From NCBI GenBank assembly GCA_009731425.1, contig AP018794.1:781960-813959 (forward strand): a DNA stretch of 32,000 nt, given 5' to 3'. Below, in pieces: positions 2,904-30,418 of the stretch. Below the pieces are notes generated by a model. That model made no database searches, was not told the origin of the DNA, and was given only the letters and a program-made list of their open reading frames with translations. The stretch is from Lachnospiraceae bacterium KM106-2 (GTDB taxonomy: Bacteria > Bacillota > Clostridia > Lachnospirales > Lachnospiraceae). Position 1 is the stretch's first letter. Every line of letters starts with the position of its first letter. Position numbers and translations under genes: made by a program.

Positions 2904-3929
2904 ATGGAAAAGAAAAAGATTGACTGGGAAAATCTTGGTTTTGGTTACGTTCAGACGGAACAAAGATTCGTAGCAAATTACCGTAATGGTGCCTGGGAAG
3001 AAGGTGGACTTACTACAGATGCTACTGTAAATATTAGTGAGTGTGCTGGTGTTCTTCAATATGCTCAGACTTGTTTTGAAGGCATGAAAGCTTATACAAC
3101 AGAAGATGGACATATTGTAACATTCCGCCCTGACTTAAATGCAGCTCGTATGGCTGATTCAGCAAGAAGATTAGAGATGCCTGTATTCCCTGAGGAACGT
3201 TTTGTAGAGGCAATTGTAAAAACGATTGAAGCAAATATCGATTATGTACCTCCTTATGGAACAGGAGCTACTTTATATGTTCGTCCTTATATGTTCGGTT
3301 CAAGCCCTGTCATTGGTGTAAAACCTGCAGAAGAATATCAATTTAGAGTATTCGTAACTCCAGTTGGTGCCTACTTTAAAGGTGGCGTGAAACCTATTAC
3401 AATCTGTGTGAGCGATTTTGACCGTGCAGCTCCAAATGGGACAGGTCATATCAAAGCAGGTCTTAACTATGCGATGAGTTTACATGCAATTGTGACAGCA
3501 CATAATAATGGTTTTGCAGAAAACATGTACTTAGATGCAGCAACAAGAACGAAAGTAGAAGAGACAGGTGGAGCAAACTTTATTTTTATTACAAAAGACA
3601 ATAAAGTAGTATCTCCTAAGTCAAGTAGTATTCTTCCTTCTATTACACGTCGTTCTATCTTAACTGTTGCAAAAGACTATTTAGGTCTTGAAGTAGAAGA
3701 ACGTGAAGTTTTATTTGAAGAGGTAAAAGACTTTGCTGAATGTGGTCTTTGCGGAACTGCTGCAGTTATCTCACCAGTAGGTAAGATCAATGACCATGGC
3801 AAAGAAATCTGTTTCCCAAGCGGAATGGATGAAATGGGACCTGTTACAAAGAAATTATATGAGACATTAACAGGAATCCAGATGGGACGTATCAAAGCTC
3901 CTGAAGGATGGTTAAAAGTTATTAAATAG
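2904..3929 (+). CDS. ilvE: branched-chain amino acid aminotransferase
   Basis: MEKKKIDWENLGFGYV..., PLP fold-type IV BCAT-like sequence along the whole length. GAAAGGAAG RBS lies 6-14 nt upstream of the ATG at 2904; the longer track ORF (2865) lacks an RBS. Confidence 0.85.
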   Translation: MEKKKIDWENLGFGYVQTEQRFVANYRNGAWEEGGLTTDATVNISECAGVLQYAQTCFEGMKAYTTEDGHIVTFRPDLNAARMADSARRLEMPVFPEERFVEAIVKTIEANIDYVPPYGTGATLYVRPYMFGSSPVIGVKPAEEYQFRVFVTPVGAYFKGGVKPITICVSDFDRAAPNGTGHIKAGLNYAMSLHAIVTAHNNGFAENMYLDAATRTKVEETGGANFIFITKDNKVVSPKSSSILPSITRRSILTVAKDYLGLEVEEREVLFEEVKDFAECGLCGTAAVISPVGKINDHGKEICFPSGMDEMGPVTKKLYETLTGIQMGRIKAPEGWLKVIK

Positions 3930-4452: not shown

Positions 4453-5580
4453 TTAGTTATCATATTTGTCATAAAACTTGAGGATTTGATTAAAATATGG
4501 AATCAAATCTTTTGTAGATTGCTTAAAGAGCGTATGTTTTGAGCCTGGAACATAACATAAAGATACGTTTTCGGCTGCTTTCATGAACTTATAATAACCA
4601 TTGGAATCAACTAAAGTATCATTTTCCGCTTCAAACATAAGAATCGGTGTCTTAACTTTAGATGCATTCTCTTTCTTAGTCAGTTCTTTTGTGATTGCAA
4701 TTGATGATTTTAACCAAGAGAATGAGCCTCCATAGGTCTGTAATAGATTATCGTTACGAACCATTTCGAAATAGTAATCGTAGCGACTTTTTGAATCGAC
4801 AGAACTATGCTCCATATCCGATACACCATCAAATGGATAATAGCCAAATAAGTAATTCTGTCCGTTTCCAGTCATGCAATATAAATTTGCGACAGCACTT
4901 GCAAGACGCTTTGGAAAGCTTCCGGTTTTAATATCTAGCATTGGTGTTGTTAAGACGGCAGCAGTAAAGAAATCTTGATGTTCTTCTAGATAGCCAGTTG
5001 CGATGGCACCACCCATAGAGTGGGCATAAAGCAATTTCGGTTCCTCTTTTGTATCTTTTGCTACCACATTATCAATGAATGACGTGAAATCACGAATGTA
5101 TTGATGAAAGTCGGTTGTGTGTACTAAACATAGATCCGGTACATTGCGATAGGAATATCCATGTCCACGATGATCCATTATGAAGACAGAGTAGTTCTGG
5201 TTTAAGAAATAGTAGATAACCTCTTTATAATGCTGTGAGCTTTCAGTGAAGCCGTGTGAGATCACGACAGTAGCTTTCGGATCCGGAACTTGATAAGATT
5301 CGTAATACAGATTCTCTTTATCATTGGATTGGAAGGTGCCTGACTTTTTATAGGCTTCTAGAAGTGGAAGAACTGTCTGGTTCATTTCTTCTTCATAGTT
5401 ATCCTCGGAGAGATAAGTTGCATAGTTTTTATTTGTGTTTGTTAACGTTTTACGGCTTTCTGGTACTGATTCCTTAAAGTTGATGAAGGTGGATGCTACC
5501 CATAATAGGAGTAAAGCGATGAAAGACAGGAAGCAGAAGCCAATTTTCTTTCTTAGTCTCATTGATTTCTTTTCGTGCAT
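4453..5580 (-). CDS. alpha/beta hydrolase (lysophospholipase / monoacylglycerol-lipase-like), membrane anchored
   Basis: N-terminal hydrophobic anchor (IGFCFLSFIALLLLWVAS), HGFTES oxyanion region, nucleophile elbow AHSMGG, and a C-terminal His region. Confidence 0.75.
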   Translation of the reverse strand: MHEKKSMRLRKKIGFCFLSFIALLLLWVASTFINFKESVPESRKTLTNTNKNYATYLSEDNYEEEMNQTVLPLLEAYKKSGTFQSNDKENLYYESYQVPDPKATVVISHGFTESSQHYKEVIYYFLNQNYSVFIMDHRGHGYSYRNVPDLCLVHTTDFHQYIRDFTSFIDNVVAKDTKEEPKLLYAHSMGGAIATGYLEEHQDFFTAAVLTTPMLDIKTGSFPKRLASAVANLYCMTGNGQNYLFGYYPFDGVSDMEHSSVDSKSRYDYYFEMVRNDNLLQTYGGSFSWLKSSIAITKELTKKENASKVKTPILMFEAENDTLVDSNGYYKFMKAAENVSLCYVPGSKHTLFKQSTKDLIPYFNQILKFYDKYDN

Positions 5581-10126: not shown

Positions 10127-12097
10127 ATGATATCAAAAAGATTAATGCCGGGAGAACGTCCTGTTTTTCCGAAAAAAGCAGTTGTAACAGCAGGAATGCC
10201 TTATGGCAATAAGAACCTACATTTTGGACATGTAGGCGGTATGTTTGTACATGCCGATATTTTTGCTAGATTTTTAAGAGATCGCATTGGAAAAGAAAAT
10301 GTTATCTTTGTATCTGGAACAGATTGTTACGGTTCTCCAATCTTAGAGAGCTATCGTAAGCTAAAAGAAGAAGGATACGAAGGAACACTTCAAGATTATG
10401 TAATGAAAAATCATAATAGTCAAAAAGATACACTTGATAAATATGAAATGAGCTTAAATTTATTTGGTGCATCTGCATTAGGCCGTACCGGTGAAATTCA
10501 TCAGCAAGTTTCTAATGAAGTATTTAATGATCTTTATGAACATGGATATATTAGAAAAGATTCTACACCACAATTTTATGATGATGAATTAGGAATTTAC
10601 TTAAATGGCCGTCAGGTTGTAGGTAAATGTCCGATCGCAGGATGTACTTCCGAACACGCATATGCCGATGAATGTTCATTAGGACATCAATATATGCCAA
10701 GCGAACTGATCAATCCAGTATCTGTATTATCAGGAAAGAAACCATCTTATCGTGACGTTACAAACTGGTATTTCGTATTAGATGAATGTATCGATGAGTT
10801 AAAAGAACAATTAGATTTCTTAAAGAGAAATACAAATACTCGTAAATACCAATTAAATATCATTGATGAATTCTTAAAGAAACCTTTAGTATATGTACCA
10901 AGAAAATATATTGAAGATTTAGCTGAATTAGAAGCTAAATTACCAGCTCATACAACAATTGATGAAGAGAAAAAGAAATCGATCACATTTGAATTCGAAT
11001 CATTAGAAGTCCGTGATGAAGCTAAGAGAGTATTAGATGAGTTAGGAATCCACTTTACAGCAGGTAAGACATTAGTACCGTTCCGTTTATCCGGTAATGT
11101 TGAATGGGGCGCAAAAGTACCTGATAAAGAAGATATGAAAGACTTAACATTCTGGGTTTGGCCAGAATCTTTATGGGCTCCAATTTCATTTACAAGAGCT
11201 TACTTAGAGTCAATCGGTCATGATCAAAAAGAATGGTCTGAATGGTGGAATGGAGAAGATTCTTTAGTATACCAATTCATCGGAGAAGATAATATCTATT
11301 TCTATTCGATCGCTGAAATGGGAATGTTCCTTTCTTTATCAAAAGGAGATATGCCAATTAGTCTTCCTCATATTGTTCCAAACCGTCATATCTTATTTAT
11401 GGATAAGAAGGCAAGCAGCAGTTCAGAAGTGAAACCACCAATGGCTGATGAGCTATTACAATACTATACTCCAGAACAATTAAGAATGCATTTCATGAGT
11501 CTTGGTTTATCTTCCAAGAGTACAGGATTTAAGCCACAGGTTTACATGAAAGAGGAAGAACGTGTTGGCGTTGATATGGTATTAAAAGATGGAAACCTTT
11601 TAACAAATGTATTCAACCGTTTGATCCGTTCTTGTTTCTATACTGCACAACAACATTATGATGGTAAGATTCCAACAGGAACTGTTAGTGAAAAGATCTT
11701 AAAATTAGCAGAAGAAAAAGTATTAGAATATGAGCGTCAGATGTATAATCAAGAGTTCCATCGAATCTCTTATGTATTAGATGAATATATTCGTGAAGTT
11801 AATAAATACTGGGCAAATCAAATCCGTGTTGCAGATAAAGAAGATAATGATGAATTAAGAAAACAAACATTACTCGATTGCTTCTATGCATGTAAGGTTA
11901 TGGCTGTTCTTGTTCATCCGATCGCTCCAAACGGATGTGAAATGTTCAGAGAATATTTAAATGTGGATGAGTCCATGTGGAACTGGGATCATATCTTTGA
12001 ACCAATTGAATTCTATACAGGTGATCTTTCTAAACATGAAATGAAATTCTTAGAACCAAGAGTGGACTTCTTCTCTAAATTAGAAAGTCAATATTAA
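10127..12097 (+). CDS. metG: methionine--tRNA ligase (MetRS1-like, 656 aa)
   Basis: PYGNKNLHFGH (HIGH region), SGTDCYGSPI, knuckle CPIAGC...ECSLGH, and YQFIGEDNIYFYS align with E. coli-type MetRS. A T-box leader lies upstream. GGAGG RBS precedes the start. Confidence 0.8.
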   Translation: MISKRLMPGERPVFPKKAVVTAGMPYGNKNLHFGHVGGMFVHADIFARFLRDRIGKENVIFVSGTDCYGSPILESYRKLKEEGYEGTLQDYVMKNHNSQKDTLDKYEMSLNLFGASALGRTGEIHQQVSNEVFNDLYEHGYIRKDSTPQFYDDELGIYLNGRQVVGKCPIAGCTSEHAYADECSLGHQYMPSELINPVSVLSGKKPSYRDVTNWYFVLDECIDELKEQLDFLKRNTNTRKYQLNIIDEFLKKPLVYVPRKYIEDLAELEAKLPAHTTIDEEKKKSITFEFESLEVRDEAKRVLDELGIHFTAGKTLVPFRLSGNVEWGAKVPDKEDMKDLTFWVWPESLWAPISFTRAYLESIGHDQKEWSEWWNGEDSLVYQFIGEDNIYFYSIAEMGMFLSLSKGDMPISLPHIVPNRHILFMDKKASSSSEVKPPMADELLQYYTPEQLRMHFMSLGLSSKSTGFKPQVYMKEEERVGVDMVLKDGNLLTNVFNRLIRSCFYTAQQHYDGKIPTGTVSEKILKLAEEKVLEYERQMYNQEFHRISYVLDEYIREVNKYWANQIRVADKEDNDELRKQTLLDCFYACKVMAVLVHPIAPNGCEMFREYLNVDESMWNWDHIFEPIEFYTGDLSKHEMKFLEPRVDFFSKLESQY

Positions 12098-12133: not shown

Positions 12134-12170
12134 AAAAAAAGCTCTCGCAAATAAGGCGAGAGTTTTTTTA
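12134..12170. terminator. bidirectional Rho-independent terminator shared by metG (+) and ferredoxin (-)
   Basis: A7-AGCTCTCGC (12140-12148), loop AAATAAG, GCGAGAGT (12156-12163), then T7. Confidence 0.8.
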
Positions 12171-12266
12171 TTTACGCGAAAAACTAGCCAAAGTGGTACT
12201 AGTATCACCTTGGTGGCTATCGTAAGATAACGAAAGAAACGCGTAAAGCGTATATCTTCTCGTTTA
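12171..12266 (+). repeat. interspersed structured repeat, copy A (diverged)
   Basis: TTTACGCGAAAAACTAGCCAAAG, then hairpin (GTGGTA/TATCAC), then CTTGGTGGCTATCGTAAGATAACGAAAGAAAC, then a second imperfect hairpin. Collinear with the copies at 17177 and 29471. Confidence 0.7.
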
Positions 12267-16992: not shown

Positions 16993-17127
16993 AATTAGAA
17001 TAAACCTCCCTTTTTGTCACAGAATGCTCTGTGATATTGATTTCATCATATCAGATGGAAACTAATTGTCAATAAAAAACAGCGCAATTTAATAATTATG
17101 AAAAAAATCAAAAATTAAAAGAAAACA

Positions 17128-17156
17128 TATACAATTTTAAATAACAAGTGTATAAT
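17128..17156 (+). promoter_or_regulatory. candidate sigma-A promoter for rimO-pgsA-cinA (TATACA - 17 nt - TATAAT)
   Basis: TATAAT at 17151-17156 and a 4/6 -35 at 17128-17133. This would put the repeat copy at 17173-17273 inside the 5' leader. Confidence 0.35.
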
Positions 17157-17172
17157 AAGACTGATGCGATGA

Positions 17173-17273
17173 TTTATTTACGCGAATAACGAGCCAAAGT
17201 GATACTTGTATCAGCTTGGCGACTATCGCGATAACGAAAGAAACTTGCAAAGCGTGTTTCTTTTCGATTTTCG
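17173..17273 (+). repeat. interspersed structured repeat, copy B (single unit)
   Basis: TTTACGCGAATAACGAGCCAAAG (17177-17199), then hairpin 1 (TGAT/ATCA on a GCCAA/TTGGC base). Then CTTGGCGACTATCGCGATAAC (17215-17235), then hairpin 2 CGAAAGAAAC (17235-17244) with GTTTCTTTTCG (17256-17266). Confidence 0.8.
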
Positions 17274-17310
17274 TTGCAGCAGAAATGACGGAATAGTTAG
17301 GAGATTTAAA

Positions 17311-18636
17311 ATGAACATTTTATTTGTATCCCTTGGATGTGACAAAAACCTTGTTGATAGTGAGGTAATGTTAGGTTTTATCCGTGAGAAAGGATATAAA
17401 ATTACGAATGATGAAGCAGAGGCAGACATCATTGTTGTAAATACATGCTGCTTTATCAATGATGCAAAGCAGGAGAGTATTGATACCATTTTAGAAATGG
17501 CTGAATATAAGAAAACTGGTAAATTGAAAGCTTTAGTTGTAACAGGCTGCCTTGCACAACGTTATAGTAAAGAAATTGCAGAAGAGATTCCAGAAGTTGA
17601 TGGAATTGTCGGAACGAGTTCTTATGAGACAATTACAGAAGTAATTGAACAAGCTTTAGAAGGTCATCATGTGGAAAAAATGGAAGATGTTGATTACCTT
17701 CCAAAGGATGAATCCGAACGTGTTATGACAACAGGCGGATATTATTCTTATTTAAAGATTGCTGAAGGGTGTGACAAGCACTGTACTTATTGTATTATCC
17801 CAAGTATTCGTGGTAAGTATAGAAGTCGTCAGATGGAAAGCTTGATCAAAGAAGCTACTTCTTTAGCAAAGAATGGTGTAAAAGAATTAATTCTTGTAGC
17901 ACAGGAAACAACACTCTATGGTGTTGATCTATATGGAGAGAAAAAACTCCCAGCTTTATTAAAAGAATTATGTAAAATCGATGGAATTGAATGGATTCGT
18001 TTATTATATTGCTATCCTGAAGAGATTACAGATGAATTAATTGAAGTAATGAAAGAAGAAGAAAAGGTTTGTCATTATTTAGATATGCCGATCCAACATG
18101 CGTCTGATCGTATTTTGAAACGTATGGGCAGAAGAACGGATCATGATGAATTAGTTGAAATCGTTACAAAATTAAAGAAAGAAATTCCGGATATCGCATT
18201 AAGAACAACCATAATTTCTGGATTCCCTGGTGAAACACAGGAAGATCACGAAGAAGTATTAGATTTTGTAGATGAAATGAATTTTGATCGTTTAGGTGTA
18301 TTTACTTATTCTCCAGAAGAAGGAACACCAGCTGCTAAGCTTCCAGAACAAATCGAAGAAGAAGTGAAGACACAGCGTCAAGGTGAGATCATGGCATTAC
18401 AACAAGAAATTTCATTAGAAAATTGCCGTAACATGATTGGGAAAGAGGTTAAAGTACTGATCGAAGGTAAAATTCCTGAAGATAATGTTTTTATCGGAAG
18501 AACTTACAAGGATGCTCCAAATGTTGATGGTTATTTCTTTGTGAAGTGTAATTACGAATTAATGTCAGGAGATTTCGTTACAGCAAAAGTTACAGAAGCA
18601 AAAGAATATGATTTAATCGGAGAGGTGATTGTATGA
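17311..18636 (+). CDS. rimO: ribosomal protein S12 methylthiotransferase (radical SAM MTTase with TRAM domain)
   Basis: MNILFVSLGCDKNLVDSE..., IVVNTCCF, radical-SAM CDKHCTYC, C-terminal TRAM domain. TAGGAG RBS before the ATG at 17311. The upstream part of the track ORF is translation of the repeat. Confidence 0.85.
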   Translation: MNILFVSLGCDKNLVDSEVMLGFIREKGYKITNDEAEADIIVVNTCCFINDAKQESIDTILEMAEYKKTGKLKALVVTGCLAQRYSKEIAEEIPEVDGIVGTSSYETITEVIEQALEGHHVEKMEDVDYLPKDESERVMTTGGYYSYLKIAEGCDKHCTYCIIPSIRGKYRSRQMESLIKEATSLAKNGVKELILVAQETTLYGVDLYGEKKLPALLKELCKIDGIEWIRLLYCYPEEITDELIEVMKEEEKVCHYLDMPIQHASDRILKRMGRRTDHDELVEIVTKLKKEIPDIALRTTIISGFPGETQEDHEEVLDFVDEMNFDRLGVFTYSPEEGTPAAKLPEQIEEEVKTQRQGEIMALQQEISLENCRNMIGKEVKVLIEGKIPEDNVFIGRTYKDAPNVDGYFFVKCNYELMSGDFVTAKVTEAKEYDLIGEVIV

Positions 18637-21218: not shown

Positions 21219-23201
21219 ATGAAAGTATCATTGAAGTTAAAGCTAACAGTGCTTATTATTGCTGCAGTCAGTGTTGTAGCAATTGCTGTTAGTGTTTTGT
21301 CATATAGAAAAACTAATGAAATTATACAAAATAAAGAAGAAGAACTAGTTTACGGAAAGATCGATCTAGTAAATGTGCAATTAGATGCATTAGTTACGAA
21401 GTCAGAAGAATTAGCTGATATTATTATTCAATCTAATAAGTTAAAAAGCAAAATGACTGCAAAGGAAGAAGAAGGATTATATGAATACTTCCAGACATTT
21501 GCAGATACTTATCCAGAGGTCGTTAACTTAATTTTTAGCCGCGAGGATAAAGTGTTTTTGTATCCAAGAAATCCAGATGTTGAAAATCAGGTCCCTGGTG
21601 AAGCAGAATGGTATTTGGAACGATTAGATGAAACGACAGAATCAAGTTGGAAGCCGCCTTATATTGATGCGGCATCTGGAACATGGATCATGACTTATTA
21701 TAAACGTGTTGTAGAAAACGATAAGATTGTAGGTTTTGTTGAAATCGATATCTCATTAGGACATATCGAAGAATTAGTTAAGACAATCGATTTAGGTAAA
21801 GGAAGTAATGTATTCATTACTGATCATGAAGCAGTTATCAACTTAGCATCAGTAGGAAATCTGATCAACAAAGATATCCCGGATGAAAAGTTGCGAGCAG
21901 CAGTTGAGAAGAATGATAAAGGCTCACTTATTTATAAAAGTACGAAAGAAGATAAGTTTGCAGTTTATAAGACAATTGAAGGAAAGATCAACTGGAAAGT
22001 AGTCGGTGTTATTCCTAAAGCAAATATTGTTAAAGATAGCAATGACTTATTAATATACATTATGATCAGTTGTATCGGAATTGCAATTGCAAGTGCCTTC
22101 GTAGTTGTACTAGTTGTGAGTCGTATTGTTAAGAATATCAAATCACTTGGGGAAAAATTAAATGCTCTTGGTGAAGGCGACTTAACTGCAACAGCAGAAA
22201 TTAAAACAACGGATGAAGTTGGACAAATGGGTACGGTATTTAATACGGCTGTAGAACATATCCGTGGATTGATTCAGACATCCCAAACGACCATCAATAA
22301 TTATTTAGAAGAATGTAATCATATTTTGGAGGTTTCAGGCGAGAGCACAGAAACAACCAACCATATTGCAGAATCAATTCAAAATATTGCGGATGATTCT
22401 TATGAACAAGCAGAAGAAACAAAGACAATTGTAAAACATTTCGAAGAGTTATCGAATGCAATGGATACGATCACATCTTCCATTGATCATGTTAACGATA
22501 CGGTTAATAAGACACAAGAAACAAATCAAAAGGGTATTGAAGTAATTGGTCAATTGTTAAAAGCGACCGATATGACTAATGATTCTACAGATGTGGTAAG
22601 AAAAACGATCGAACAGATTAATCAGACATCTTATGAAATTGATGCCATTGTTGGTGCGATCAACGATATTGCATCTCAAACTAACTTACTTGCATTAAAT
22701 GCTAGTATCGAAGCAGCAAGAGCGGGTGAGAATGGAAAAGGTTTTGCAGTTGTAGCGGAAGAGGTAAGAGTTCTTGCAGAGTCTTCAGCAAACTCAGCAG
22801 GTGAGATCAGAACATTGATCGAACGTGTAAAATCACAAGCAAATGAAGCTGTTGTAGAAATGGAAACAGTTAAAAATAATACTCATTTACAATCAGAAGC
22901 AGTTAAGAATACAAGAGTATCTTTCGACACTCTTCATGATGCTGTATCTGAATTAAATAATGAAGTAAATAGTATCGGAGAATTAAATCAAGATATGATC
23001 GAAGTACGTCATGTGGTAGAACATATCATTGACAACTTTGCAGAAAAAGCAAAGAATAATTCTGATGCGACACAAACAATCTCAGCGATGACAGAAGAGC
23101 AGCTTGCTACTTTGATCAGTGTAGATGAAAGTATCCAGACATTAGCAAATTCAGCAGCTGATCTAGAAAAAGAAATTAATAAATTTAAGACACAAGAATA
23201 A
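21219..23201 (+). CDS. methyl-accepting chemotaxis protein (Cache-type sensor, HAMP, MA domain)
   Basis: N-terminal TM helix, periplasmic sensor, second TM helix, HAMP ([18 protein letters not shown]). Highly conserved signalling hairpin [34 protein letters not shown]. Confidence 0.9.
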
Positions 23202-23211
23202 TGATTCGATA

Positions 23212-23246
23212 AAGAGAAACACGGTAATCGTGTTTCTCTTTTTTTG
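23212..23246 (+). terminator. Rho-independent terminator after the MCP gene
   Basis: AAGAGAAACACG (23212-23223) pairs with CGTGTTTCTCTT (23229-23240), then a T-run. Confidence 0.85.
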
Positions 23247-29201: not shown

Positions 29202-29432
29202 ATGGAATTTGAAAAGATAAAAAAGATTATTAGCGAAGTATTAAGTATTAATGAGGAAGATATCACATTAGCGACAACATTCGTTGATGATTTAGGTGCT
29301 GATTCACTTGATGTATTCCAGATCATCATGGGTATTGAAGAAGAATTCGATATTGAGATCGCAAATGAAGATGCTGAAAAGATCGTAACAGTAGAAGATG
29401 CTGTTGAACAAATAAAGAACGCATTAAACTAA
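29202..29432 (+). CDS. acpP: acyl carrier protein
   Basis: 76 aa, with the phosphopantetheine attachment motif DLGADSLD. Confidence 0.9.
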   Translation: MEFEKIKKIISEVLSINEEDITLATTFVDDLGADSLDVFQIIMGIEEEFDIEIANEDAEKIVTVEDAVEQIKNALN

Positions 29433-29436
29433 GCGT

Positions 29437-29470
29437 AAAAAGCTGTCCTGAGTTTGCGGGCAGCTTTTTA
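29437..29470 (+). terminator. Rho-independent terminator after acpP
   Basis: AAAAAGCTGTCC (29437-29448) pairs with GGGCAGCTTTTT (29458-29469, one G-U pair). Confidence 0.75.
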
Positions 29471-29699
29471 TTTACGCGAGCAACGAGCCAAAGTCATACA
29501 GGCATGAATTTGGCGACTGTCACGATAGCCAGAAGAAGCACGGGTACCGTGGTTATTCTGGCTGGAGTGACAATGAGCCAAGGAAATGTATTTTATGACC
29601 TTGGCGACTGCCGTGATAGCCAGAAGAAGCACGTGAATCGTGGTGCTTCTGGTGGACGCGAGCAACGAGCCAAAGTCATACAGACAGGCAACGAGCCAG
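29471..29699 (+). repeat. tandem array (about 2.5 units, period 90-92 nt) of the interspersed structured repeat
   Basis: Perfect 28-nt direct repeat ACGCGAGCAACGAGCCAAAGTCATACAG at 29474-29501 and 29656-29683. TTGGCGACTG at 29510 and 29601. GATAGCCAGAAGAAGCACG at 29524-29542 and 29615-29633. Each unit carries two hairpins. Confidence 0.9.
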
Positions 29700-29716
29700 C
29701 CTTAAGGAGGAAGATC

Positions 29717-30418
29717 ATGAATCATAAAGATTCTGTTATTGAATTTGAGGAACACATTAACTATACTTTTCAAAATAAGGAATTTTTGAAAACAGCTTTA
29801 TCGCATAGTTCTTATGCAAATGAGAAAAGATTTGATAAGATTGCAAACAACGAAAGAACCGAGTTTCTTGGAGATGCTGTATTAGAGTTAGTATCTAGTG
29901 AGTTTATCTTTAAACAATACAGCAACAAAAACGAAGGTGAAATGACGAGATTACGTGCTAGTCTCGTATGCGAGCCAACACTAGCCTATTGTGCACGAGA
30001 AATCAATTTAGGAGATTACATTTTACTTGGTAAAGGGGAAGATGCTACCGGTGGAAGAGACCGTGATAGTATTCTATCAGATGCCCTAGAAGCTGTAATC
30101 GGTGCGATTTTTCTTGACGGTGGTTTTACTAATGCAAAAGAGTTCATTTTAAAATATGTATTAAATGATATCGAACACAAACAGCTCTTTTATGATAGCA
30201 AGACTATCTTACAGGAAATTGTTCAAAGTGAAAGTAAATTACCTCTTACTTATGAACTACTTTCAGAAGAGGGACCAGATCATAATAAGAAATTTACCAT
30301 TGCAGCAAAGCTTGGGGAAGAAGAGCTTGCAGTGGGCAGTGGCCGTACAAAGAAAGCAGCAGAGCAATCTGCAGCTTATCAGTCTATTATTAAATTAAGA
30401 AAAACAGGGAGGGCATAA
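29717..30418 (+). CDS. rnc: ribonuclease III
   Basis: MNHKDSVIEFEEHINYTF..., signature ERTEFLGDAVLE, C-terminal dsRBD (GPDHNKKFTI...GRTKKAAEQSAA). AAGGAGG RBS at 29704-29710. The 71 codons upstream in the track ORF are repeat sequence. Confidence 0.9.
   Translation: MNHKDSVIEFEEHINYTFQNKEFLKTALSHSSYANEKRFDKIANNERTEFLGDAVLELVSSEFIFKQYSNKNEGEMTRLRASLVCEPTLAYCAREINLGDYILLGKGEDATGGRDRDSILSDALEAVIGAIFLDGGFTNAKEFILKYVLNDIEHKQLFYDSKTILQEIVQSESKLPLTYELLSEEGPDHNKKFTIAAKLGEEELAVGSGRTKKAAEQSAAYQSIIKLRKTGRA

Follow-up and report, generated by a model that had tools for sequence, protein, structure and literature searches.

A structured intergenic repeat of gut Lachnospiraceae has a copy in the rimO leader of strain KM106-2 and lies mostly past intrinsic terminators elsewhere

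Results

Copies of one element near metG, rimO and rnc

The window analysed here is a stretch of 32,000 nucleotides from Lachnospiraceae bacterium KM106-2 (contig AP018794.1, positions 781,960 to 813,959 of the forward strand). The rimO, pgsA and cinA genes in this window are preceded by a structured element of about 95 nt, and further copies lie next to metG and between acpP and rnc. The features concerned, in window coordinates, are as follows:

17128-17156, + strand: promoter-like site (TATACA, 17 nt, TATAAT) before the rimO copy; 10/12 in a consensus scan, a consensus match only
17177-17268, + strand: rimO-leader copy of the element; cmsearch with model R1, filters off, 89.8 bits, E 1.6e-20, model positions 1-95
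17181-17230, + strand: long imperfect hairpin of box 1 with box 2, from the single-sequence fold, RNAalifold and pair counts with covariation
17235-17266, + strand: hairpin 2, consisting of CGAAAGAAAC, an inner mini-stem and GTTTCTTTTCG; from the fold
17311-18636, + strand: rimO (ribosomal protein S12 methylthiotransferase; product 100% identical to KM106-2 RimO), then pgsA and cinA; from synteny and Pfam matches in relatives
12171-12264, + strand: second full copy; covariance model 60.4 bits, sequence and terminator scan
29471-29563, + strand: third full copy (copy A); covariance model 70 bits; abuts the acpP terminator (~29444-29470)
29567-29654, + strand: degenerate tandem copy (copy B); covariance model 23.2 bits, E 6.5e-4; direct-repeat family D4
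29653-29690, + strand: solo box 1 (copy truncated 3'); pattern match with 2 mismatches, 27 nt before the rnc start at 29717

The rimO-leader copy is full length and scores best in the window with R1, a covariance model built on copies from other genomes, which finds four copies here, all on the + strand (89.8, 70, 60.4 and 23.2 bits). The same single orientation, already reported in the original prediction, emerges from a degenerate box-1 pattern with four + strand matches (12171, 17177, 29471 and 29653) and none expected from 100 shuffles. The box 2 pattern matches three times against 0.16 expected, and a repeat finder recovers the same repeat families in the window. Box 1 of the rimO copy (TTTACGCGAATAACGAGCCAAAG, 17177-17199) agrees with 29471-29493 at 21 of 23 positions, as had been stated, and the window's own copies are only 82-84% alike.

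The copy at 12171-12264 lies between convergent genes and abuts the metG terminator (hairpin 12142-12162 plus T-run). It had been described as lying upstream of metG; it is in fact downstream of this gene, directly past the metG terminator. Between acpP and rnc, copy A is followed by copy B, which has a decayed box 1 and retains box 2 and hairpin 2, and which is the true source of the hairpin 2 arm GUGCUUCUGG quoted in the original prediction. The array ends in the solo box 1, and solo boxes following full copies are also found at three other loci (L034, L047 and L078).

Together, copy A, degenerate copy B and the solo box 1 make up the rnc leader (29467-29716, + strand), which has a predicted folding energy of -102 kcal/mol (z = -6.6). 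The predicted fold would place a long double-stranded RNA directly before the gene for RNase III, and this RNA would be a conceivable substrate of the enzyme itself. RNase III as encoded in the window is 100% identical to that of KM106-2, whose annotated form has 281 aa, compared with 229-236 aa in most of its closest homologues, and its 48 extra N-terminal residues would be read through the repeat (29573-29716, + strand). The protein probably starts at 29717, behind a good AAGGAGG ribosome-binding site, and the longer annotation is probably an error caused by the element.

At the gathering threshold, an Rfam 15 search of the whole window matched only a T-box leader (RF00230, 9690-9944, + strand; 107.6 bits, gathering score 93) upstream of metG (10127-12097). 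No repeat copy lies behind the terminator of this T-box. Rfam 15 scans by E-value of 17120-17320 and 29430-29725 remained at chance level (at most 16.4 bits, E >2), and a tRNA/tmRNA search found none. We found no description of the element in Rfam 15 or in the searchable literature, although it may have been described elsewhere. The box sequences are absent from the first 200 supplementary files of a catalogue of gut structured RNAs (PMC8040213).

The two boxes pair, and the fold is conserved across the family

The original prediction combined single-stranded boxes with covarying stems, and only the second part of this picture stands. The upper-stem flip is confirmed, with TGAT/ATCA in the rimO copy (17200-03 with 17210-13) and TCAT/ATGA in the rnc copy (29494-97 with 29504-07). 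Differences between copies are indeed compensatory, and this extends to the boxes themselves: both box-1 changes of the rimO copy (AT, where the rnc copy has GC) are matched in box 2, giving T:A and A:T pairs versus C:G and a G:T wobble. The boxes are therefore paired rather than single-stranded. They form two helices with each other, P1 and P2, and show covariation; in the single-sequence fold CGCGA pairs with UCGCG, and GCCAA with UUGGC. In the rimO copy, P1 joins 17181-84 and 17186-88 to 17224-30, an internal loop sets ACGA (17189-92) opposite GAC (17221-23), P2 joins 17193-97 to 17216-20, and an apical stem joins 17200-04 to 17209-13.

A hand-drawn structure comprising P1 (ACGCGA.GCA with TGC.CGCG), the 4-by-3 loop, P2 with its apical stem and a P3 hairpin was tested on 65 distinct copies. 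Across these copies 95.2% of cells were paired and 19 of 34 pairs had changed on both sides; none of 500 shuffles reached any of five pairing measures, and slid controls were 30-47% paired. Changes on both sides affect 12 of the 15 pairs of helix 3 (hairpin 2) across the family, and at columns 13 and 56, where box 1 pairs with box 2, 40 copies have G:C and 16 have A:U. A second sample, drawn from metagenomes and ascertained on box 2, was 97.4% paired with 15 pairs changed on both sides, in an alignment that was fitted to the model and hence leans toward structure. Selection on a folded form, as originally suggested, is thus supported for the family as a whole. The unpaired nucleotides and lower stems of the element are almost invariant, and the apical stems and hairpin 2 covary; with the preceding T-run, the consensus is TTTTTATTT-ACGCGAGCAACGAGCCAAAG-TCCGTGCTTGCACGAGA-CCTTGGCGACTGCCGCGATAAC-TTGAGAAACTCGCGAAGCGTGTTTCTCATAGTT.

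Pair counts on the + strand include 153 G:U against 80 A:C mismatches, a ratio of about 2:1 that is suggestive rather than decisive, since the copies are interrelated and mutations may fall unequally on the two strands. GC skew is positive throughout the window, so the folded strand is the leading-strand sequence and serves as the lagging-strand template. The strand data are compatible with either an RNA or a single-stranded DNA form.

The element belongs to a dispersed repeat family

The genome-wide search proposed in the original prediction, by box pattern and covariance model, revealed a multicopy family. A scan of a genome collection with ACGCGANNAACNAGCCAAAG matched at least 120 loci. Among the loci listed, at least 89 have the box-1 match in element context and come from Lachnospiraceae-type gut Clostridia, while the other 31 are chance matches inside genes of unrelated phyla. 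R1 matched at least 87 times in the listed genome loci, and a metagenome scan ascertained on box 2 added 106 further R1 matches in 100 gut metagenome loci. Hosts in the genome scan include Blautia, Dorea, Coprococcus, [Ruminococcus] faecis, Oliverpabstia, Lachnospira, Anaerosporobacter, Waltera and Marvinbryantia.

Copies have a median identity of 0.905 within a genome and 0.82 between genomes, and in several genomes copies at unrelated loci are 96-99% identical. Their flanks are almost all unique. Variant forms comprise solo box 1, tandem arrays, copies that stop short behind hairpin 1 or box 2, and copies interrupted by insertions (L071 and L091). The distal part is lost in about 10-12 of 90 listed copies ascertained on box 1, and the terminator-proximal end in only about 3 of 104 copies ascertained on box 2; this polarity, which compares two differently ascertained samples, hints that the underlying process begins next to the terminator. 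Carriage by phage was considered and rejected, as just 4 copies occur among 2.9 million viral contigs.

A link to translation and RNA metabolism, drawn originally from the three loci in the window, is not borne out by the family, with no functional theme among the neighbours of about 90 loci. When 652 ORFs from 89 listed 8-kb loci were clustered all against all and then compared with Pfam, at least 49 upstream neighbours represented 73 Pfam families and at least 33 downstream neighbours represented 68, with no family occurring more than twice. Genes directly preceding copies include the highly expressed rpmB, cspA, acpP, rpsT and tpiA. No recurrent transposase, reverse transcriptase or other gene was found near copies in the 89 listed 8-kb neighbourhoods. 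The possibility of a neighbouring mobilising gene was accordingly set aside, the families encountered being housekeeping ones (e.g. ABC, MatE, histidine kinase and DegV). Multiple copies with unique flanks, mixed neighbours and variant forms are together the signature of a dispersed non-autonomous repeat family. The element is a member of a dispersed family of two-hairpin intergenic repeats of about 95 nt, spread across the Lachnospiraceae.

Copies begin at the 3' edge of intrinsic terminators

The 55 nt upstream of a copy fold at -15 kcal/mol or below in 78% of listed copies, compared with 9% of random positions in the same loci, and the mean upstream folding energies are -19.4 and -8.9 kcal/mol, respectively. 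The usual 5' junction reads hairpin-TTTTT(T)ATTT-ACGCGA, in which the hairpin is locus-specific in sequence and the TTT of the element is the end of the terminator T-run. Besides those of metG and acpP in the window, terminators followed by copies include those of cspA (L025 and L118) and rpmB (L057 and L116). At least 90% of copies have the 5' TTT, 92% have a 3' TT and 58% a further T; TTTAT occurs within the 5' junction in 43% of copies, while a consistent 3' direct repeat of TTTAT is seen in only 14%. The 3' end (…AGTT, then T in 58% of listed copies) bears no set relation to downstream features: the distance to the next start codon ranges from 0 to more than 2000 nt, and 31 of 91 listed copies face a convergent gene.

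Terminators followed by copies also occur in the expression platforms of TPP riboswitches (L039 at ~5040-5282 and L082 at ~3282-3520, - strand). In these two loci, which belong to different genera, the element lies between the riboswitch terminator and the regulated gene, and in the ON state of the riboswitch the leader transcript must contain it.

About seven copies, that of rimO among them, lack a preceding hairpin; the 55 nt upstream of the rimO copy fold at -2.0 kcal/mol. The rimO copy had been assigned to a 5' UTR. The element does sit between the promoter match at 17128-17156 and the rimO start codon on the + strand, and judging from this arrangement it is probably transcribed within the 5' UTR. 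The sequences flanking the copy (17165-17172 and 17271-17279; UGCGAUGA with UUCGUUGCA) are mutually complementary and enclose the element in the predicted fold. This complementarity may be due to chance, or may represent a small hairpin that predates the insertion.

Presence, absence and replacement among relatives

In four relatives with RimO proteins 74-79% identical to that of KM106-2, the gene order is conserved, with a divergently transcribed gene of 544-549 aa followed by rimO, pgsA and cinA. The rimO leaders of these relatives align without the element, and R1 with filters off finds no match in any of the four. One of them, Anaerosporobacter faecicola, has copies elsewhere in its genome (L027 and L110). 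Similarly, in three relatives with plsX-acpP-rnc-smc synteny the acpP terminator is retained, but the acpP-rnc spacer has no copy behind it. We infer that the rimO copy is a lineage-specific and atypical insertion between the promoter-like site and the ribosome-binding site.

The closest comparison comes from the rpmB locus of Coprococcus catus VPIC661 (L116), which is 98-99% identical to three metagenome contigs (L136-138) through rpmB and its terminator, up to …GGGCTTTTTTTCAT. Past the T-run, L116 carries the element plus 10 nt, whereas L136-138 carry an unrelated segment of ~112 nt that contains a hairpin; identity returns at TCAGTTGAAA, in the last codons of a convergent gene for an FHA-domain protein. 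In a more distant group of contigs with the same rpmB synteny, the T-run abuts the stop codon of the FHA-domain gene and the element is missing. The searches yielded no clean empty site, and this best case is one of replacement. Since L116 and L136-138 diverge precisely where the T-run stops, the 3' border of the terminator T-run is a site of insertion or replacement. The element has thus been gained, lost or replaced exactly at the T-run junction between close relatives.

The ~112-nt segment (L136:927-1038, also in L137 and L138) forms a 16-bp hairpin (AATCTAAAAATGACCA...TGGTCATTTTTAGATT). Possibly this segment is a further element occupying the same post-terminator niche.

Comparison with known repeat classes

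In the way it works the element is closest to the REP/REPIN and BOX-type structured repeats, and its niche is that of group IIC introns. The REP/BIME elements and REPINs of Proteobacteria, which are mobilised by RAYT (Y1) transposases encoded by a single-copy gene flanked by the repeats, are likewise short, high-copy, extragenic, hairpin-forming imperfect palindromes that occur at gene 3' ends, make up sequence populations within a genome and lack coding capacity. They also consist of two similar inverted arms that make one long hairpin. Here, box 1 resembles the reverse complement of box 2, and the two pair with covariation. The element differs in having, in its consensus (TTTACGCGAGCAACGAGCCAAAG...CCTTGGCGACTGCCGCGATAAC), no GTAG/CGTC tetranucleotide of the kind that heads the 20-40 nt palindrome of REPs, in being a composite of two different hairpins of ~95 nt in total, in showing almost one consensus across many genera, and in being fused to the terminator T-run, whereas REP sequences lie upstream of the terminator or replace it. 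It is moreover found in Clostridia, and no RAYT-like partner was seen in the 89 listed 8-kb neighbourhoods.

BOX elements of Streptococcus pneumoniae, ERIC sequences and Correia elements (CREE) resemble the element in being modular, ~100-150 nt long, stably structured, scattered between genes and sometimes co-transcribed; their variable modules find a parallel in the solo box 1, the tandem copies and the copies without hairpin 2. To our knowledge, no enzyme that mobilises BOX has been identified, and we know of no anchoring to the last T of intrinsic terminators in BOX, ERIC or Correia. Their sequences are unrelated to that of the element, and Correia and ERIC elements have terminal inverted repeats, which it lacks. 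Absence of terminal inverted repeats also separates it from MITEs, its 5' end (TTTACGCGAG) being unrelated to the reverse complement of its 3' end (AACTATGAGA). A check for a target-site duplication found only TT(T) at both ends, in searches that recovered no clean empty site.

Group IIC introns reportedly insert directly past terminator hairpins and in the same orientation, which is where the element is found (78% of listed copies versus 9% of controls). The element is nonetheless just 95 nt long and has no ribozyme domains (domain V), reverse transcriptase or conserved ORF. No group II intron match was found in Rfam for 17120-17320 or 29430-29725, even at E up to 10. A group II intron remnant was among the alternatives considered: the niche is shared, but there is no ribozyme match and the length is only 95 nt.

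PATEs of the IS200/IS605 group, which are transposed as single-stranded DNA, similarly lack terminal inverted repeats and a clear target duplication, have subterminal hairpins and a fixed short sequence 5' of the element, and show a strand-specific fold on the lagging-strand template (which holds for the element in this window). In IS608-type elements, the hairpins of the left and right ends are alike. In the present element the P1/P2 hairpin and hairpin 2 differ in both sequence and architecture, and no TnpA or TnpB gene was found near the listed copies. Overall, those defining features of these classes that could be tested are missing from the element, namely the GTAG/CGTC head, terminal inverted repeats, ribozyme domains and end hairpins that match.

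Finally, bcr1-type repeats are structured, 100-400 bp long, specific to Firmicutes and known from the Bacillus cereus group, with signs of mobility tied to TTTAT (PMC6542083). The association with TTTAT recurs in 43% of element 5' junctions, while the host clade is different and the 3' direct repeat of TTTAT is inconsistent (14%). We know of no description of terminator adjacency for bcr1, and the likeness noted here concerns such general features.

Discussion

What lies in the rimO leader is a stray member of a very abundant repeat family of gut Lachnospiraceae, and not a dedicated regulator of rimO. For the window itself, this removes the tempting but wrong idea of a dedicated riboregulator common to rimO, metG and rnc. 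The rimO copy probably rides along passively in the 5' UTR, and its effects on rimO, if any, would be incidental. Lachnospiraceae are among the most abundant human gut bacteria, and a structured element of 95 nt that is nearly the same in different genera and has many copies in each genome appears to be uncurated. The manner in which copies dock on terminator T-runs raises the question of how a short element without an enzyme of its own finds terminators, and the answer could reveal either a new pathway of transposition or copying, or a layer of organisation at the ends of transcription units.

We propose that the element is a non-autonomous structured repeat of the REP/BOX kind, with new copies placed at the 3' edge of terminators, and consider this the probable explanation, while allowing for substantial doubt. 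Copying would be carried out by a putative trans-acting activity that recognises, on the + strand, the hairpin's invariant lower stems and loop nucleotides, with the apical stems and hairpin 2 required merely to pair. The recognised strand would be co-oriented with the terminator and, in this window, would also be the lagging-strand template. Possible mechanisms include single-stranded DNA (HUH-type) transposition, copying primed by the T-run, and template switching at terminators. Several considerations run counter to this proposal. No transposase, reverse transcriptase or other recurrent gene accompanies the listed copies, no clean empty site was recovered, and terminal inverted repeats are lacking. 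A near-identical consensus across genera is unusual for selfish repeats and would fit a host function too. The homogeneity of copies within a genome could arise from gene conversion rather than transposition.

The element might instead be useful to its host as a cis-acting RNA module (i.e. a site at which RNase III or another activity processes the RNA, a stability barrier, or a module that insulates transcription units from one another) that is transcribed by terminator read-through or in 5' leaders. The strongly conserved, covarying fold speaks for such a module, and the wobble excess falls on the + strand, the one that would be read into RNA past the terminator. High sequence conservation across genera, the predicted stability of the rnc leader array, and the tolerance of copies in leaders past riboswitch terminators and in the rimO leader also speak for an RNA function. 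Most copies, however, begin where transcripts end, so that little RNA should include them. There is no set distance to start codons, 31 of 91 listed copies face a convergent gene, orthologous sites in relatives are without copies, copies are swapped between near-identical strains, and truncated copies are common. On balance, we regard an RNA module as unlikely.

A bolder form of the copied-repeat proposal is that the element represents a new kind of mobile element without autonomy, or descends from one by domestication, and enters at the 3' edge of terminators. The terminator T-run, or its single-stranded DNA hairpin on the lagging-strand template, might then prime or guide the copying of the element. 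Priming of this kind would explain the exact 5' junction, the excess of distal (3') truncations and the absence of terminal repeats. If correct, the element would mirror the targeting of group IIC introns in a short form with no enzyme of its own, and would do so abundantly in a dominant family of the human gut. We nonetheless judge so novel an entity distinctly unlikely.

Quite improbable, in our assessment, is a host-useful DNA site at the ends of transcription units, bound for example by gyrase or a nucleoid protein. Binding of this kind has been proposed for the REP/BIME elements of E. coli, and a site directly past the terminators of genes such as rpmB, cspA, acpP, rpsT and tpiA, with lower stems invariant in both sequence and structure and conserved across genera, would be in keeping with it. 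We know of no protein partner. The covarying apical stems and hairpin 2, like the asymmetry between G:U and A:C, favour a single-stranded fold over recognition of a duplex, and the pattern of gain and loss is sporadic.

The original prediction envisaged a riboregulator in the 5' UTRs of metG, rimO and rnc. Two of these copies, those of rimO and rnc, do lie upstream on the same strand as the gene, and a promoter-like site precedes the rimO copy. Nonetheless, the metG copy is downstream of its gene, the element is missing from the four syntenic rimO leaders and the three acpP-rnc spacers of relatives, most copies lie directly past terminators, spacing to start codons and ribosome-binding sites is not conserved, and the neighbours at about 90 listed loci share no functional theme. 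A leader-type regulator is thus very improbable. Scarcely credible, and effectively refuted, is a small protein gene on the reverse strand: its 29-codon ORF (MRNTLREFLKLSRQSPRSRASTDFGSLLA) is intact in most copies of the dominant subfamily, with start and stop coinciding with the element ends, but other subfamilies are frameshifted in hairpin 2 or lack a start codon, many copies contain in-frame stops, the window copies are all broken (at 3, 10 and 15 codons), and substitutions track base pairing rather than codon position.

This ORF spans the element exactly in the dominant subfamily (e.g. L104:654-748, reverse strand), stops at a TAA that is the complement of the 5' TTTA, with the bidirectional terminator beyond it, and gene callers could list it as a family of small hypothetical proteins. 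A promoter carried by the element was also considered and discarded, as the matches are weak and not conserved (TTGAGA, 17 nt, TCTCAT, in one subfamily).

There are further practical consequences. The element appears to have misled the annotation of RNase III in KM106-2, and short-read assemblies of gut metagenomes break at it: 23 box-2 matches lie within a few dozen bases of metagenome contig ends (L164-L283).

One last observation concerns hairpin 2. The terminator of the window gene that ends at 23201 (GATAAAGAGAAACACGGTAATCGTGTTTCTCTTTTTT; 23184-23244, + strand) resembles this hairpin, with a model score of 22.3 bits (E 0.001), and hairpin 2 may be derived from, or usable as, a terminator hairpin.
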